Below are positions 4,404 through 15,575 of a stretch of 64,000 nt of DNA, one piece after another; positions within the stretch are counted from its first letter, which is position 1; each line of letters opens with the position of its first letter. The stretch is from an uncultured Clostridia bacterium (GTDB taxonomy: Bacteria > Bacillota > Clostridia > TANB77 > CAG-508). Both the position numbers and the translations under genes were made by a program. The stretch covers positions 1,475,279 through 1,539,278 of the forward strand of contig OZ007016.1 in NCBI GenBank assembly GCA_963931445.1, written 5' to 3'. A model generated the notes under the pieces. The model worked only from the letters and a program-made list of their open reading frames with translations. It did not search any database and was not told the DNA's origin.

Positions 4404-5897
4404 TTATTTCTTTTTATTTTCTACCATTTCATCTATTATTTTATTTACTATTAGGTTTTCATCAAATGGATATCTTTTTTTATTTATCTCTTGATATTGT
4501 TCATGACCTTTTCCTGCAAGAACAATTATATCTTTTTTGTTTGCCATGCTTATTGCTTTTTTTATTGCCTCTACTCTATCTACAATACATTCATATTTTC
4601 CATTTGTCTTTTTTGTTCCTTTTTCTATGTCCATTATTATATCTTCTGGTTTTTCAGTTCTAGGATTATCTGATGTAATAATTGTATAATCTGCTACTCT
4701 TCCTGAAGCCTCTCCCATCATTGGTCTTTTATTTTTATCTCTATCTCCACCACATCCAAATACTGAAATTACTCTACCTTTTGTATATATTTTTACAGAT
4801 GATAATATTTTTTCTAAACTTTCTGGTGTATGTGCATAATCAATCATTATTGTTAAACCTAATTTATTTTCTACAAGTTCACTTCTTCCTGGTACTCTTA
4901 TATTTTCTAATGCTTCTTTTATATTTTCACTTTTGCATCCAAATTGCATAGATACAAATATTGCAGCTAATGAATTATATACACTAAATCTTCCTGGTAT
5001 AGATACTTTTACCCTTTCGTTCTTATCTCCTAATTTTACTTTAAAATCCACATACTGATTTGTTACAGTAATATCTTTTGCTAATAAATCACAATGATTA
5101 TCTATTCCATATGTTGAAAATTGACATTCTGGTACAAGTTTTGGAATTGTTATAGAATATACATCATCTGCATTTATAAATCCTTTTTTGCACATTTTAA
5201 ACAATTTTACTTTTGAACTAAAATACTCTTCCATATCTTGATGCTCTTTGCTACTAATATGATCTTCTGCTAAATTTGTAAATACTCCTATATCAAAATC
5301 ACATCCTGCCACTCTTTCTAATTTTAAGCTTTGTGATGATACTTCCATTACAACTGCTTCGCATTTTTCTTCTAGCATTTTACTAAATATTTCTTGTAAT
5401 TTCAAACTTTCTGGTGTTGTATTTTCGTTATCTGCAATCTTCTTATCTCCTACATATGAAGCTACAGTTCCTATTAAGCCTACTTTTATTCCCTGTTTTT
5501 GCAATATGTCTCTTATCATGTATGTAGTAGTTGTTTTTCCCTTAGTTCCTGTAACCCCTATTAATTTCATTTTCTTTGAAGGATTTTTATAAAAATTGCA
5601 TGCTGCTATTGCTAAAGCATATCTTGTATCCTTTGTTAAAACTAAAACTATATCTTCTGGAAATTCTTTTATTTTATTTTTATCAAATTCATTTTCTTGA
5701 GCTAATATTACTTTTGCACCATTTTTTATTGCATCCATAATATGTTCATGTCCATTTGTTTCAAAGCCTTTTATTGCTACAAACATATCATTTTCTTCTA
5801 CATCTTTAGAATTATTTTTAATATTTTTAACATTTATATCTATATTGCCTTTTACCTTTAAATCTTCTAATCCTAATAGAATACTTTTTAAATCCAT
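4404..5897 (-). CDS. murE: UDP-MurNAc-L-Ala-D-Glu:meso-DAP ligase
   Basis: Mur ligase domains with P-loop GVTGTKGKTTTT and the DNPR motif specific for DAP-adding MurE. Confidence 0.9.
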   Translation of the reverse strand: MDLKSILLGLEDLKVKGNIDINVKNIKNNSKDVEENDMFVAIKGFETNGHEHIMDAIKNGAKVILAQENEFDKNKIKEFPEDIVLVLTKDTRYALAIAACNFYKNPSKKMKLIGVTGTKGKTTTTYMIRDILQKQGIKVGLIGTVASYVGDKKIADNENTTPESLKLQEIFSKMLEEKCEAVVMEVSSQSLKLERVAGCDFDIGVFTNLAEDHISSKEHQDMEEYFSSKVKLFKMCKKGFINADDVYSITIPKLVPECQFSTYGIDNHCDLLAKDITVTNQYVDFKVKLGDKNERVKVSIPGRFSVYNSLAAIFVSMQFGCKSENIKEALENIRVPGRSELVENKLGLTIMIDYAHTPESLEKILSSVKIYTKGRVISVFGCGGDRDKNKRPMMGEASGRVADYTIITSDNPRTEKPEDIIMDIEKGTKKTNGKYECIVDRVEAIKKAISMANKKDIIVLAGKGHEQYQEINKKRYPFDENLIVNKIIDEMVENKKK

Positions 5898-11008: not shown

Positions 11009-12262
11009 CTACAAATACAAGCTGAGACGGAAGCCGATGCCGAAGTAACTGTCAGTCGCATTGTCGTAGTTACGGCTAGCTGTGTAAATGTTGCTGTCGT
11101 AGTAAAGGCCTCCTCTAAAAGTACAGGGGTTAGCAAAATTGCTGTAAGTGTAACTTGAATATTCTGTAGTCCATTCTGCTAAATTAGAAGCCATATCATT
11201 TATTTTACATACTTCATCTGCATTTGCTCCTGTATTTGCTAAACTACTATTTTTACTTTTTTGATTTGCATAATTTATATTTCCTGCTTCTTGTATATAC
11301 ACTATTGCTGTATCCCATGCATAACTATTTATTAAATCACTTTTTACACTTGTACTTTCTGCATAAGTATTTATTGCAACCTTTGATGCATCAAGCTGAG
11401 TTATATAGTTCCATAATGTTTTTGGATTATATGACATACTATCTTCTGAATAACCATTAGATTTTTTTGATGCTGCTTTATAATTTGCCGTACTGCTTCC
11501 ACTTGCATAACTTGCTTCATATCTTCCTATATAATATCCACCATTTGAATTCACACTATCTATAAATCCTTTTAAATCTTTGGCTGTTGCATTTTCTCCA
11601 TCTTTTCCACTACTTGCAACTCCTTGTCTATATTCTATAATTTCTTTATATCTTGAATTTATTACTACACTGTCTGATTGATCTGTATAATGTTCTGCAT
11701 ATTGTACTGGTTCTGGATTTCCAGATTCATCAAATGTATATCTTCCTAATTTTATTTCTGCACTTGGACTTCCATCATCTTTTGTAAATGTTCCTACTGG
11801 TATCCACACATATTGGCTTCCTTGCACATTTGCATCATTAGATGCATTCACATCTTCTATTACTATTCCTTGATGTACTGTATCTCCTGAATCTTCCGCT
11901 ATTTTAAATCCTGCTGGAACCATTACAGTATTATTCTTTTCATCTTTTATTGGAGTTTTTGATGTAAACACATAACTATTATTCTTTGCATCTGTTACTG
12001 TACTTGGTGGTGGTTCTGGCTCTTTTGTTTGCTCTGTTATATATGCATCTAAATTTGCCATTGTTTGGTCTTCTTTTACTTCTCCCTGCTCTGTTCTATC
12101 TTTTGCTTCTTTTGCCCATCCTACTAATCCATTATCTCCAAATGCTCCTCTTATTGCTATTGTTGCTAATATGATTAATATCACTATTGTTATTACTAAC
12201 GCAATTAAGGTTATTCCTCTTTCTTGTTTTAAGGCTTTTTGAAACTTTTTATTTTTACTCAT
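11009..12262 (-). CDS. type IV pilin-like protein (class III leader KQERG|ITLIALVITIVIL) fused to a C-terminal FGE-sulfatase (SUMF1-like) domain
   Basis: The N-terminal 22 aa are nearly identical to PilA at 42494. The C-terminus carries FGE-sulfatase motifs (NLAEWT, RGG, GIGFRL). The 3' part is noticeably GC-richer than the genome. Confidence 0.7.
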   Translation of the reverse strand: MSKNKKFQKALKQERGITLIALVITIVILIILATIAIRGAFGDNGLVGWAKEAKDRTEQGEVKEDQTMANLDAYITEQTKEPEPPPSTVTDAKNNSYVFTSKTPIKDEKNNTVMVPAGFKIAEDSGDTVHQGIVIEDVNASNDANVQGSQYVWIPVGTFTKDDGSPSAEIKLGRYTFDESGNPEPVQYAEHYTDQSDSVVINSRYKEIIEYRQGVASSGKDGENATAKDLKGFIDSVNSNGGYYIGRYEASYASGSSTANYKAASKKSNGYSEDSMSYNPKTLWNYITQLDASKVAINTYAESTSVKSDLINSYAWDTAIVYIQEAGNINYANQKSKNSSLANTGANADEVCKINDMASNLAEWTTEYSSYTYSNFANPCTFRGGLYYDSNIYTASRNYDNATDSYFGIGFRLSLYL

Positions 12263-12888: not shown

Positions 12889-13569
12889 TTAATCTATAGT
12901 TGTACTTGTTTTTCCTGTTCCTACTACATCCTCTTGTAGTGAACTCCATGTATTACACCCTACTATTCCATCTGCTGTAAGTCCTACCTTTCTTTGATAG
13001 TTTTTTACTGCTTCTTGTGTTGCTGAGCCAAATATTCCATCTAATCCTCCAGTTCTAAATCCTAATGTATTTAAATCATCTTGTGCTATTAAAACATAAT
13101 TACTCAAACTTCCTCTTTTTATTAATGGATATCCCCCTGTACTACATGCTGGCTTACCAAATCTTTTATCAAAATGGACCCATGTTGGTGTAAGTGATAT
13201 TGGTTCTACAAAACTCCATACTCCAGAATTTTTTGCAGAATTATATAATTTAACCCTTTGAGTTTGCGAAAGTATTTGACCTACATCAAATGCAGTACCT
13301 GCATAATGCTGACTTTGGTTTCCATGACCTCCTTCATAAGGTCTTTTAAATGCAAATCCTACAGGTATTGGCTGTCCATATATATATCTTTGGCTATTCC
13401 AACTTTGCATTGTTCTTTTTGTTGTCCATAATATATTACTTTTGCTAGATCCTCTAAATTCTTTCACTTTTAAAGTTCCGTTTGAATTATATGGCATAGG
13501 CTCATTTTCACCTCTATAATATGTTTCCATTCTATCAGTATCATTATTAAAAACTATTATTTTTGCCAC
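12889..13569 (-). CDS. cell-wall hydrolase: peptidase M15 (VanY/L-Ala-D-Glu endopeptidase-like) with C-terminal PG_binding_1 domain; GTG start
   Basis: M15 motifs SQHYAGTAFD and WVHFD. C-terminal LGF..G.DGIFG..T..AV..YQ is a peptidoglycan-binding domain. GGAGGAG RBS lies before GTG. Confidence 0.7.
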   Translation of the reverse strand: MAKIIVFNNDTDRMETYYRGENEPMPYNSNGTLKVKEFRGSSKSNILWTTKRTMQSWNSQRYIYGQPIPVGFAFKRPYEGGHGNQSQHYAGTAFDVGQILSQTQRVKLYNSAKNSGVWSFVEPISLTPTWVHFDKRFGKPACSTGGYPLIKRGSLSNYVLIAQDDLNTLGFRTGGLDGIFGSATQEAVKNYQRKVGLTADGIVGCNTWSSLQEDVVGTGKTSTTID

Positions 13570-13671
13570 AATACTCCTCCTTAAAATATATATTGTATTA
13601 TATTTATATTCTAAATTTAAATATTCGTTACTACATTTTTATTTTTATGTTATAATGTTTTTGGTGATATT

Positions 13672-14271
13672 ATGGAAAATAATTTCTATTCAGAAATAAA
13701 TTCAAAATATTGCTATGAAAATAGCAATGTTCTAGTTAATAAACTTAATATACATGATGAAAAGATTTTACAAAAATATGAAGCTAAAATAACTGCTGCT
13801 AAACTTTTATCTTTAAGACATAAAGGAATTATTGGTAATTTTGATGTTAAACATCTTAATTCAATACATTCTTATTTATTTGAAGATATATATTCATTTG
13901 CTGGAAAATTTAGAAATGAAAATATTGCTAAAGATAATTTTAGATTTGCAGAATATGAATATATAGAACAAGAACTTATTAAATTACTAAATAAGCTAAA
14001 AGAAGAAAATTATCTTTCTAATCTTTCTAAGGAAGATTTAGCACAAAAACTTGCTTACTATATGTCTGAATTAAATGTACTTCATCCATATAGAGAAGGT
14101 AATGGAAGAACTATTAGAGAATTTATTAGAGAATTAGCTTTAAAAAATAACTTTACATTAAATTTAAGTAATGTTTCACCTAAATTATTTTTAGAAGCAA
14201 GTAAAAAATCTATTGTAGACCCAGCTCCTTTAGCTAAATTAATATACACTTGCTTAGAAGAAAAAAGTTAA
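13672..14271 (+). CDS. fic: Fic-family AMPylator (HPYREGNGRTIRE motif) with no intrinsic inhibitory helix
   Basis: Canonical Fic motif HPxx(D/E)GNGR. No (S/T)xxxE(G/N) motif at either end, so it is class-I-like. Extended -10 TGTTATAAT lies upstream. Confidence 0.8.
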   Translation: MENNFYSEINSKYCYENSNVLVNKLNIHDEKILQKYEAKITAAKLLSLRHKGIIGNFDVKHLNSIHSYLFEDIYSFAGKFRNENIAKDNFRFAEYEYIEQELIKLLNKLKEENYLSNLSKEDLAQKLAYYMSELNVLHPYREGNGRTIREFIRELALKNNFTLNLSNVSPKLFLEASKKSIVDPAPLAKLIYTCLEEKS

Positions 14272-14310
14272 AATATATATTTGTCTTACTTTATAATATG
14301 TTTATTTTTT

Positions 14311-14392
14311 TCTAAATATAATAAAAATAAATAACTTCTTCAATAAATATCACAGATTTTTAATACACTAAATAGTAGCAAAAAATCTCACT
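14311..14392. repeat. Right inverted repeat flanking the endolysin-Fic cassette
   Basis: See 12700-12780. Confidence 0.7.
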
Positions 14393-14494
14393 AATATTGC
14401 AAATATATACTAATTTTACTGGACTTTTAGCCTTATTTATGGTATAATATATATGTGGTTGTTTTATAACCAATTATATCTTGGAGGTTGTAAA

Positions 14495-14662
14495 ATGTTT
14501 AATGAAGAAATTTTTAATTTTGATATAAATAATATAAAAAGTGATTTAGCAATAGAGGGTTTATCTATATCTGATACTGATATAAATTTATTTAAACAAT
14601 TTGCTAATGATGAAATTGATATAACAAATTTAATACAAACAATAAAAGATGAAATTAATTAA
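14495..14662 (+). CDS. VbhA-like Fic antitoxin domain protein (55 aa)
   Basis: GGAGG RBS and its own TGgTATAAT promoter. AIEGLSIS...NDEIDITNLIQTIKDEI follows the VbhA pattern (xxEGL...GE(L/I)xxSDVIKDL). ATG at 14495 is preferred over the upstream ORF start. Confidence 0.55.
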   Translation: MFNEEIFNFDINNIKSDLAIEGLSISDTDINLFKQFANDEIDITNLIQTIKDEIN

Positions 14663-14719
14663 ATTTTCCTTTACAAAGTTAAAATAATTTTAATTACATC
14701 TTTTCTTATTAAAATGAAA

Positions 14720-14778
14720 AATCTATCTTTTATGTATGCTTTCTTTTGAGAGTGAGCAAACATAAAAGATAGTTTTTT
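14720..14778. terminator. Bidirectional rho-independent terminator with a 13-bp stem
   Basis: CTATCTTTTATGT...ACATAAAAGATAG followed by a T-run. Confidence 0.6.
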
Positions 14779-14816
14779 TATTTTAACAATAATATTTTAA
14801 TTTATGTATTTTCATT

Positions 14817-15575
14817 TTATACTTCTCTACATTTAACTACCAACCTTTGTGTTCCATAATTTGTGCAAGTTATTAATGTTACTTCTTTCCTTCCGTTTGT
14901 AAGTTGACTTGTACATCTTGTATCTGTTGGATTTACTATGTATTTATTGTAAACTTCATATTCTAATGTTCTTCCTGTCATATCTTGTAATTGTATTTTA
15001 TCTCCATTTTCTAATTCACTTAATCTTCCAAACATTTTTCCATTTCTATAATTATGTCCTACAATACAATAATTTCCTACTTCATTTGGTTTTACATTTG
15101 GTTTTAATTTATCTGCTTCTGGCCAATACCTGTTAACTGAAATTTCAAGTAACTCATCAGAAGTTTCAGATAATACTGGATATGTTATTCCTATCTTTGG
15201 TATAGTAATAATTGCTTCTGTTGTATATGTAACTCCACCTATTGTTGTATTACTAGATATTTCATTATTTGTAGAACTTATCTCTTGAGTTTCTTGTATT
15301 TGAGTTTGCTGTACTTCTCTTTCACTTAATACAACTATTATTACATCATCTTCTTCTGCTTGCTTAATTGTATCATCATTTTCTATTTTTACTTCTGATA
15401 ATAATTGTTTTGAAACTTCCTCGCTTTTATTTCTATCATACTCTGCATATATATAATATGAGGATAATAAACATACTAAAAGAACTGATATAAAAAATTG
15501 GATTTTATACAGTTTCTTTTTTCTTTTTAGTTCTGGAGTAACATATAGCTTTTCAGTAACTAAAATTTGATTCAA
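14817..15575 (-). CDS. sortase-family transpeptidase
   Basis: N-terminal TM, catalytic His (VGHNYRNG), the TLITC signature and a downstream Arg. Confidence 0.8.
   Translation of the reverse strand: MNQILVTEKLYVTPELKRKKKLYKIQFFISVLLVCLLSSYYIYAEYDRNKSEEVSKQLLSEVKIENDDTIKQAEEDDVIIVVLSEREVQQTQIQETQEISSTNNEISSNTTIGGVTYTTEAIITIPKIGITYPVLSETSDELLEISVNRYWPEADKLKPNVKPNEVGNYCIVGHNYRNGKMFGRLSELENGDKIQLQDMTGRTLEYEVYNKYIVNPTDTRCTSQLTNGRKEVTLITCTNYGTQRLVVKCREV

Follow-up and report, generated by a model that had tools for sequence, protein, structure and literature searches.

A chromosomal fic gene of gut Clostridia and its separately promoted partner gene, which encodes a putative divergent member of the FicA/VbhA antitoxins

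Described FicTA modules encode the antitoxin directly upstream of the Fic toxin, within one operon (PMC5033356, PMC3667792). FicA antitoxins consist of three antiparallel helices, of which helix 1 carries the inhibitory motif at its C-terminal end, and in the solved Fic-antitoxin complexes the Ser/Thr and the Glu of this motif both contact the second arginine of the Fic active-site motif (PMC8401265). Here we describe a locus from a 64,000-nucleotide (nt) stretch of contig OZ007016.1 of an uncultured Clostridia bacterium (hereafter the window; G+C content 25.6%), whose nearest relatives are metagenome-assembled genomes of uncultured gut Clostridia, e.g. Clostridium sp. CAG:508, CAG:273 and CAG:567. 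The locus consists of two open reading frames (ORFs) on the same (+) strand, fic and, downstream of it, a small gene for a protein of 55 amino acids (aa); a scan of the window ORFs finds no second copy of either. We are fairly confident that the two form a chromosomal FicTA-type pair, in which a class-I Fic is accompanied by a divergent antitoxin whose E21 would block productive ATP binding via R149 of the Fic.

The closest match of the window Fic in sequence and structure is VbhT of the class-I FicTA system VbhT-VbhA from Bartonella schoenbuchensis (PDB 3SHG, 3ZC7). Like VbhA, the partner from the window is modelled as a small three-helix protein whose first helix has Glu-Gly at its end, and its E21 falls on E24 of VbhA. 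Unlike the window Fic, which is a stand-alone, chromosomal protein, VbhT possesses a C-terminal BID domain, is plasmid-borne and is secreted; moreover, vbhA lies upstream in the operon, whereas the small gene lies downstream with a promoter of its own, and Ser20 of VbhA faces Asp17 here. The EcFicT-EcFicA pair (Fic-YhfG) of E. coli (PDB 5JFF, 5JFZ) likewise combines a Fic of ~200 aa, to which the window Fic aligns from end to end (8e-27), with a small antitoxin partner. EcFicTA is inherited vertically and syntenically within its clade (PMC5033356), and so is the family of the window. However, the active site of EcFicT is degenerate, with no demonstrated AMPylation, whereas that of the window Fic is canonical, and ecficA lies upstream and carries the canonical [S/T]xxxE[G/N], in contrast to the small gene downstream with its Asp.

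Three further systems bear on the comparison. Fic-1-AntF of Pseudomonas joins a class-I Fic of ~205 aa to a small antitoxin; it is proteobacterial and experimentally characterised, whereas the Clostridia family is known from sequence. Through its Glu, AntF prevents the AMPylation of GyrB and lets the complex act as a deAMPylase (PMC13327609), and this pair may offer the best functional analogy for a possible role of E21. The BiaA-Bep FIC complexes of Bartonella (PDB 5EU0, 5NH2) enter through BiaA, the second match among PDB sequences of our broad small-protein profile (E 0.052, with AIEG...YA.GE aligned), although Beps are secreted, host-targeting effectors and BiaA is encoded upstream of bepA. 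Sofic is an anti-phage Fic-domain toxin with a 47-aa protective protein, AS1, encoded downstream; it is a larger Fic protein with an inhibitory alpha-helix of its own (PMC12249575). A small protein downstream of a Fic-domain toxin is thus common to Sofic-AS1 and to the window pair, a likeness of position, and the window Fic matches the PADLOC SoFic model only weakly (3.6e-06). Class-III Fic proteins (NmFic, EfFic), finally, have a similar size and Fic core but possess an inhibitory helix of their own, located at the C-terminus.

By its database matches the window Fic is of the class-I type. It matches Pfam PF02661 at 6.2e-17 (62.7 bits against a cut-off of 24), its best NCBIfam matches are the class-I models VbhT (1.7e-42) and E. 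coli Fic (PRK10347; 2.1e-39), both under the equivalog cut-offs, and its best PDB match is the FIC domain of VbhT (4e-34, residues 6-181). Besides EcFicT, the PDB matches include, at 5e-25, the 205-aa chain 8WT0, which was deposited only as 'Cell filamentation protein Fic' and is probably Pseudomonas Fic-1. The active-site motif HPYREGNGRTIR satisfies HxFx(D/E)GNGRxxR with a sole departure, Tyr for Phe at position 3, where the relatives have Phe; in our Fic alignments (A4 and A7) its residues are invariant except for Y140/F and for residues 147-148, the xx of RxxR.

A preliminary description of the locus had credited the Fic with a canonical motif and with no inhibitory helix of its own, and both statements hold. 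A regular-expression search finds no [ST]xxxE[GN] in the whole window Fic; therefore the protein, lacking an inhibitory motif in cis, needs a partner. Its alignments to the class-III structures (NmFic and EfFic; 1e-18 to 8e-21) end at least 20 residues short of the inhibitory helix of these proteins, and just 2-9 residues of the window Fic remain past them. As candidates for a cryptic intramolecular helix we considered a class-III-like TxxLEN (about residue 183) and an N-terminal SYCYEN (about residue 11), which occur in some relatives, and rejected them: both are unconserved and absent from the window Fic, and the segments align to the class-I core, outside the inhibitory-helix positions of classes II and III. 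The AlphaFold2 (AF2) model of the Fic, at a predicted local distance difference test (pLDDT) score of 56, was too poor for a count of helices. Just past the active-site motif, fic contains a perfect 12-nt tandem duplication, TATTAGAGAATT twice (window 14112-14135), which encodes IREF-IREL; because the peptide REFIR(E/Q)L is conserved across the family, this duplication is not recent.

The small ORF is a genuine gene, with 115 close homologues of which most are exactly 55 aa long and none has a Pfam annotation; its ratio of non-synonymous to synonymous substitution rates (dN/dS) of 0.09-0.18 in three separate groups indicates purifying selection. A 69-aa reading from the ATG at 14453 was discarded, since this ATG lies just 5 nt past the -10 box and the homologues start at MFNEE. 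No source provided a name for the family. A few predicted proteins have the small-protein sequence fused to other segments, one (P0367) to the C-terminal half of Fic and four (P0296, P0304, P0359, P0366) to a NIF3-like, RHS-like or HD-like segment; these may be deletions, read-throughs or assembly chimeras.

Comparisons at the level of profiles support the kinship of the 55-aa protein with VbhA that had been proposed from its sequence pattern, and place it in the FicA/VbhA antitoxin superfamily as a very divergent member. The family profile, searched against 1.84 billion representatives, retrieves 113 proteins at E<=1e-3, two of which (P0389 and P0395) exceed the gathering score of Pfam VbhA (PF18495) with 26.6 and 26.9 against 25.9, while two others (P0396 and P0398) fall short of it by 0.2-1 bit; in this library HMMER links the small-protein family to the Pfam-VbhA-positive proteins at E 1e-4 to 6e-4. 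The distant relatives bear canonical motifs such as SLAIEG, SFAVEG and TLAMEG. An hhalign comparison of the broad alignment A5 (the window protein plus distant relatives reached by iterative widening) with A3, an alignment of 18 Bartonella-type VbhA sequences, yields a probability of 77.7% and an E of 1.9e-5 over 49 ungapped columns (window residues 7-55 on VbhA 10-58). The VbhA sequence used agrees with PDB chains 3ZC7_B and 3SHG_B. In the AF2 model of the small protein (pLDDT 69.7) helices span residues 4-20, 27-37 and 43-54, the first of them carrying the predicted motif at its C-terminal end, and a Foldseek search with this model ranks VbhA first and second among 350,542 PDB chains, at a non-significant E of 0.6-1.0. 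Identity to VbhA is ~14-18%. Known FicA proteins share just 12-22% identity with each other (PMC8401265), so that the divergence of the small protein is normal for the family.

E21, within the predicted inhibitory motif, is the sole invariant column across A5, and in the family alignment A2 D17 and E21 are invariant, D17 in 52/52 family members, and G22 nearly so; hhalign places D17/E21/G22 onto S20/E24/G25 of VbhA. Farther out in the family, the position of D17 is taken by D, E, S or T. The idea that the inhibitory Ser is merely displaced by one residue has to be given up, as Ser16 is Asn in most homologues (also S, T, K, H or R) and it is Asp17 that occupies the Ser/Thr position. By analogy with the solved complexes, Asp17 could be a plausible substitute for the Ser/Thr contact with the arginine.

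Genomic association was surveyed from both sides, in 62 species representative loci around the small gene and in 80 metagenome loci around fic (individual loci are labelled L0xx). On the small-gene side, Fic lies directly upstream, as in the window, in 14 loci and directly downstream, the canonical order, in 34 (including a frameshifted Fic in L035 and a gap of 1.1 kb in L050); in two it is nearby but inverted, in ten there is no Fic within ~5 kb, and in two the contig is too short. Fic thus shares the locus in 50/62 species representatives and adjoins the small gene on the same strand in 48/62. On the Fic side, the small gene lies upstream in 66 loci and downstream in three, ten contigs are cut and uninformative, and it is absent from one (L074, a short contig with an inverted arrangement); it therefore adjoins 69/70 informative Fic loci, a figure that overstates the number of independent observations, since many of the 80 loci come from near-identical strains of the same species. 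Loci that have Fic but lack the small gene hardly exist, whereas the small gene does occur without Fic or beside a decayed one, an asymmetry that fits the pattern expected of a toxin and its antitoxin. In L035 an intact small gene stands beside a Fic pseudogene in three reading-frame segments (L035:5463-6031).

Ten species (L010, L030, L036, L040, L041, L046, L047, L049, L053 and L054) keep such an orphan small gene together with its conserved promoter. In seven of them (L036, L040, L041, L047, L049, L053, L054) it lies at 5001-5174, between a SpoU-type methyltransferase gene and gltX, with a dN/dS of 0.18 and an identical N-terminus of 26 residues that includes DLAIEG.

The features of the locus are listed in Table 1. 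The extended -10 and the ribosome binding site (RBS) that the preliminary description had seen in front of the 55-aa ORF are indeed present, and a CTG(G/T)AC...TTTTGTGGTATAAT block upstream of the small gene is conserved, with hardly a base changed, in nearly all 62 species loci, including those of orphans and those in which the small gene precedes fic (antitoxin-first). The putative -10 of fic was missed by the consensus scan because its -35 is poor, and TG(g/t)TATAAT is conserved at a similar position upstream of fic in the clade that shares the order of the window (Fic-first). A scan for terminators in the spacer between the two genes found none, and the spacer RNA folds with a z-score of -0.25. 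The long hairpin behind the small gene, in contrast, has arms of 38 nt that are 87% complementary and folds at -39 kcal/mol (z -8.0), a stability reached by 0/200 shuffles.

Table 1. Features of the fic locus and of its partner gene, in window coordinates
Feature	Position	Strand	Product, composition or basis
putative fic promoter, extended -10 TGtTATAAT	13648..13656	+	sequence; no good -35
fic RBS GGTGA	13663..13667	+	sequence; 4 nt before ATG 13672
fic gene	13672..14271	+	199-aa class-I Fic protein, FicT-like AMP transferase (predicted)
Fic active-site motif HPYREGNGRTIR	14083..14118	+	residues 138-149: H138...R146...R149
fic-small-gene spacer, 223 nt	14272..14494	+	no terminator-like structure
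small-gene promoter TGGACT, 17 nt, TGgTATAAT	14420..14448	+	consensus scan, 10/12 matches plus TG
-35-like TGGACT of small-gene promoter	14420..14425	+	
extended -10 TGgTATAAT of small-gene promoter	14440..14448	+	
small-gene RBS GGAGG	14483..14487	+	sequence; conserved in homologous loci
small gene	14495..14662	+	55-aa divergent FicA/VbhA-like antitoxin (predicted)
codons D17-L-A-I-E21-G22, predicted inhibitory motif	14543..14560	+	conservation, hhalign, AF2 helix 1 end
long hairpin, A-/T-run flanked, putative bidirectional terminator common to convergent sortase gene	14703..14792	.	repeat finder and fold

Between the stop of the small gene and the start of fic, antitoxin-first relatives (L061:5160-5260, L039:5163-5255, L043:5170-5270, L064:5160-5265) have a terminator-like hairpin that is bordered by A-/U-tracts (z -3.0 to -3.7) and may attenuate transcription of the toxin. 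Because such a hairpin often separates the genes in these relatives, semi-independent transcription of the two seems to be a trait of the family. A second hairpin, of 10-14 bp and ~50 nt upstream of the -10, holds the -35 of the small gene in its loop in antitoxin-first relatives (L028, L042, L043, L045, L051, L056, L058-L066, L068, L070; window counterpart 14395-14448) and is flanked by A-/T-runs. Its arms vary in sequence between species yet stay complementary, with folds of -12 to -19 kcal/mol, and there are 21 double-change cells where shuffles give 11.4 (2/500), in an ungapped alignment that blurs register shifts. The structure looks like the terminator of the upstream gene overlapping the small-gene promoter; the window's clade lacks the 5' arm, as would be consistent with a rearrangement breakpoint at this place.

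The toxin-first order, reversed relative to vbhA-vbhT as first described, is real: the small gene of the window does not precede fic in an operon but follows it at a distance of 223 nt and has a promoter of its own. A literature search for Fic-first FicTA modules found nothing relevant. The order is best regarded as derived, because it is limited to close relatives of the window, with small proteins at least 72% identical, whereas the most divergent members of the family (L068, L070, L071) and most others, among them the sister lineages, are antitoxin-first. A chain of extant arrangements connected by intergenic inversions leads from L033, with sortase, M15-like (-), small (+) and Fic (+), through L025 and L024 to the window, and it is plausible that the Fic-first order arose from the antitoxin-first order by local inversions, a path whose direction we infer. 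Such a change was probably made possible by each gene having a promoter of its own. The inverted repeats that were thought to bound a fic cassette dissolve into background: the best inverted match between the flanks is at chance level, its score being reached by 171/500 shuffles, and the repeat finder reports 164 weak AT-rich inverted pairs in 1.7 kb. Gene order correlates with the identity of Fic residue 188 (nt 14233-14235), which is Glu in nearly all antitoxin-first relatives (T-x-x-L-E-N/K/E) and Ala, Ser or Thr in the Fic-first clade.

The neighbourhood of the locus is a conserved core (sortase, ksgA, penicillin-binding protein (PBP) and mraZ genes) shared by ~60 species of one clade of gut Clostridia. 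The pair departs here from the general pattern of type II toxin-antitoxin systems, which is a single autoregulated bicistronic operon with frequent horizontal mobility: its genes have separate promoters and stand in a conserved, syntenic core. Compared with window 12889-15575, the M15-like gene, fic and the small gene vary in order and orientation in L015, L024, L025, L033 and L034, while the sortase-ksgA-PBP block is stable. The M15-like/PG_binding_1 gene upstream of fic is a single ORF of 226 aa in the window (12889-13569); in L001-L004, L006, L012 and L018 its homologue is split into a pair of overlapping ORFs, one of 156 aa and one of 68 aa. In the metagenome contig of L005, otherwise syntenic, most of the M15-like gene and the mraZ side of the neighbourhood upstream of fic have given way to RhuM-like and DUF6904 genes (L005:373-2658), which suggests that foreign DNA was inserted at this boundary. 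Further upstream, a 417-aa ORF at window 11009-12262 (-) shows a weak match to N_methyl, the prepilin-type N-terminal methylation motif (E 0.013, below cut-off), and no other domain; weakly similar ORFs lie near the locus in L053 and L062.

A number of observations weigh against reading the locus as a FicTA-type pair. The window small protein alone has no match in Pfam, in NCBIfam or, by phmmer, in PDB, the profile of its close relatives none in PDB, and the Bartonella VbhA hidden Markov model (HMM) finds the small protein among the window ORFs at an E of 7.4. Single family members reach Pfam VbhA at E 0.002 at best, in 8-10 members and below threshold, and we discounted these matches as a spurious match to MMS21_N is equally frequent and no worse. 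The narrow family by itself aligns to VbhA with an hhalign probability of 7.8%, and the stronger result reported above therefore depends on the iterative widening of the alignment. The lack of a VbhA-family hit, named in the preliminary description as grounds for rejection, thus holds for the window protein in a literal sense only, since its family is linked to VbhA by way of intermediates and of hhalign. In addition, the sequence departs from the strict (S/T)xxxE(G/N), with Asp17 at E minus 4, and to this must be added the inflated Fic-side count. Since ten species keep a selected small gene without a Fic within 5 kb, the gene may also have a role beyond guarding an adjacent Fic. What speaks for a VbhA-like antitoxin is the conjunction of profile-level homology, predicted fold, an invariant Glu, a genomic association seen from both sides and a conserved promoter.

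The preferred reading, a FicTA-type pair, is based on homology, conservation of the motif, association of the genes, conservation of the promoter and purifying selection; from these we infer binding, inhibition through E21, toxicity and target. The three-helix bundle of the small protein would pack on helix alpha-1 of Fic, setting Glu21, with which the first helix ends C-terminally, against R149, the second arginine of the motif, with Asp17 standing in for the canonical Ser/Thr that contacts the same arginine. Once Glu21 engages R149, ATP would be unable to bind Fic productively. Transcription of fic would start from one promoter, and the small gene would be read from its own strong promoter and probably also by run-through from that of fic, because there is no terminator between the genes; two promoters could keep the antitoxin in excess despite its downstream place. 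Free Fic, by analogy with VbhT and Fic-1, would AMPylate GyrB/ParE (gyrase/topoisomerase IV) and arrest growth, and the complex, by analogy with Fic-1-AntF, may also remove AMP.

The same structural mechanism could serve another role. It is possible, although we incline to the contrary, that the two genes are a domesticated regulatory pair, i.e. an AMPylase/deAMPylase switch for a housekeeping target, passed on vertically, in which the separate promoters set the ratio of Fic to its partner and hence the direction of the reaction. The conserved core neighbourhood across ~60 species of one clade would suit such a switch, as would the separate promoters together with the terminator-like hairpin between the genes in antitoxin-first relatives, and the persistence of the small gene without Fic in ten species; for the likewise vertically inherited EcFicTA, its authors infer a physiological role (PMC5033356). 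On the other hand, the active site of the window Fic is fully canonical, unlike that of EcFicT, and the small gene has repeatedly outlived the loss or decay of Fic (L010, L035 and the orphan clade), which fits a dispensable toxin better than it does an essential regulator.

An abortive-infection module for phage defence, in which the small protein, once depleted or titrated during infection, would free Fic to arrest the cell, is unlikely. The match of Fic to PADLOC family PDC-S04 is strong (3.6e-68), but PDC-S04 is merely a candidate family, and the small protein has no PADLOC match; the precedent of Sofic, a Fic-domain defence protein with a small antitoxin gene downstream (PMC12249575), is offset by neighbours that are cell-wall and cell-division genes rather than a defence island, and by the vertical, syntenic inheritance of the locus. 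We think it very improbable that the small ORF encodes an unrelated helical protein merely syntenic with a Fic that is regulated otherwise or non-toxic: the missing direct database match, the separate promoter, the selected orphans and the non-significant structural matches would agree with this, but the adjacency outlasts several rearrangements and both gene orders, the sole invariant residue is the Glu of xxxE(G/N) at the FicA position, HMMER links to Pfam-VbhA-passing proteins are significant, and the Fic is without an inhibitory motif in cis and needs a partner.

A FicTA-type pair as preferred here is a kind of system already known, and its departures are the Asp at the Ser/Thr position and the downstream place of the small gene with a promoter of its own; the known mechanism of Fic inhibition is unchanged by the finding. 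As to its role, the vertical and syntenic descent of the locus and the persistence of orphans would point to domestication for regulation or immunity. A bolder proposal, to which we give little credence, is that the small protein is an independently expressed switch or immunity subunit and not just the guard of its neighbour, with Asp for Ser/Thr as a family-specific adaptation of the arginine contact. If this were true, the level of the small protein, set by its own promoter, would decide between the addition and the removal of AMP, and the stand-alone copies, which at least ten species keep under purifying selection, would guard the cell from Fic toxins that are encoded elsewhere or delivered from outside.

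For the family as a whole, the extant intermediates would represent a FicTA pair switching its gene order without losing the partnership, and an Asp tolerated at the Ser/Thr position would widen the pattern by which Fic proteins are classified. What appears to be new is an unannotated branch of FicA/VbhA proteins, invisible to Pfam, that occurs widely among gut Clostridia with small genomes (relatives of CAG-508, CAG-273 and CAG-567). Without recognition of the small protein, the Fic of these genomes would seem to be an uninhibited class-I toxin.

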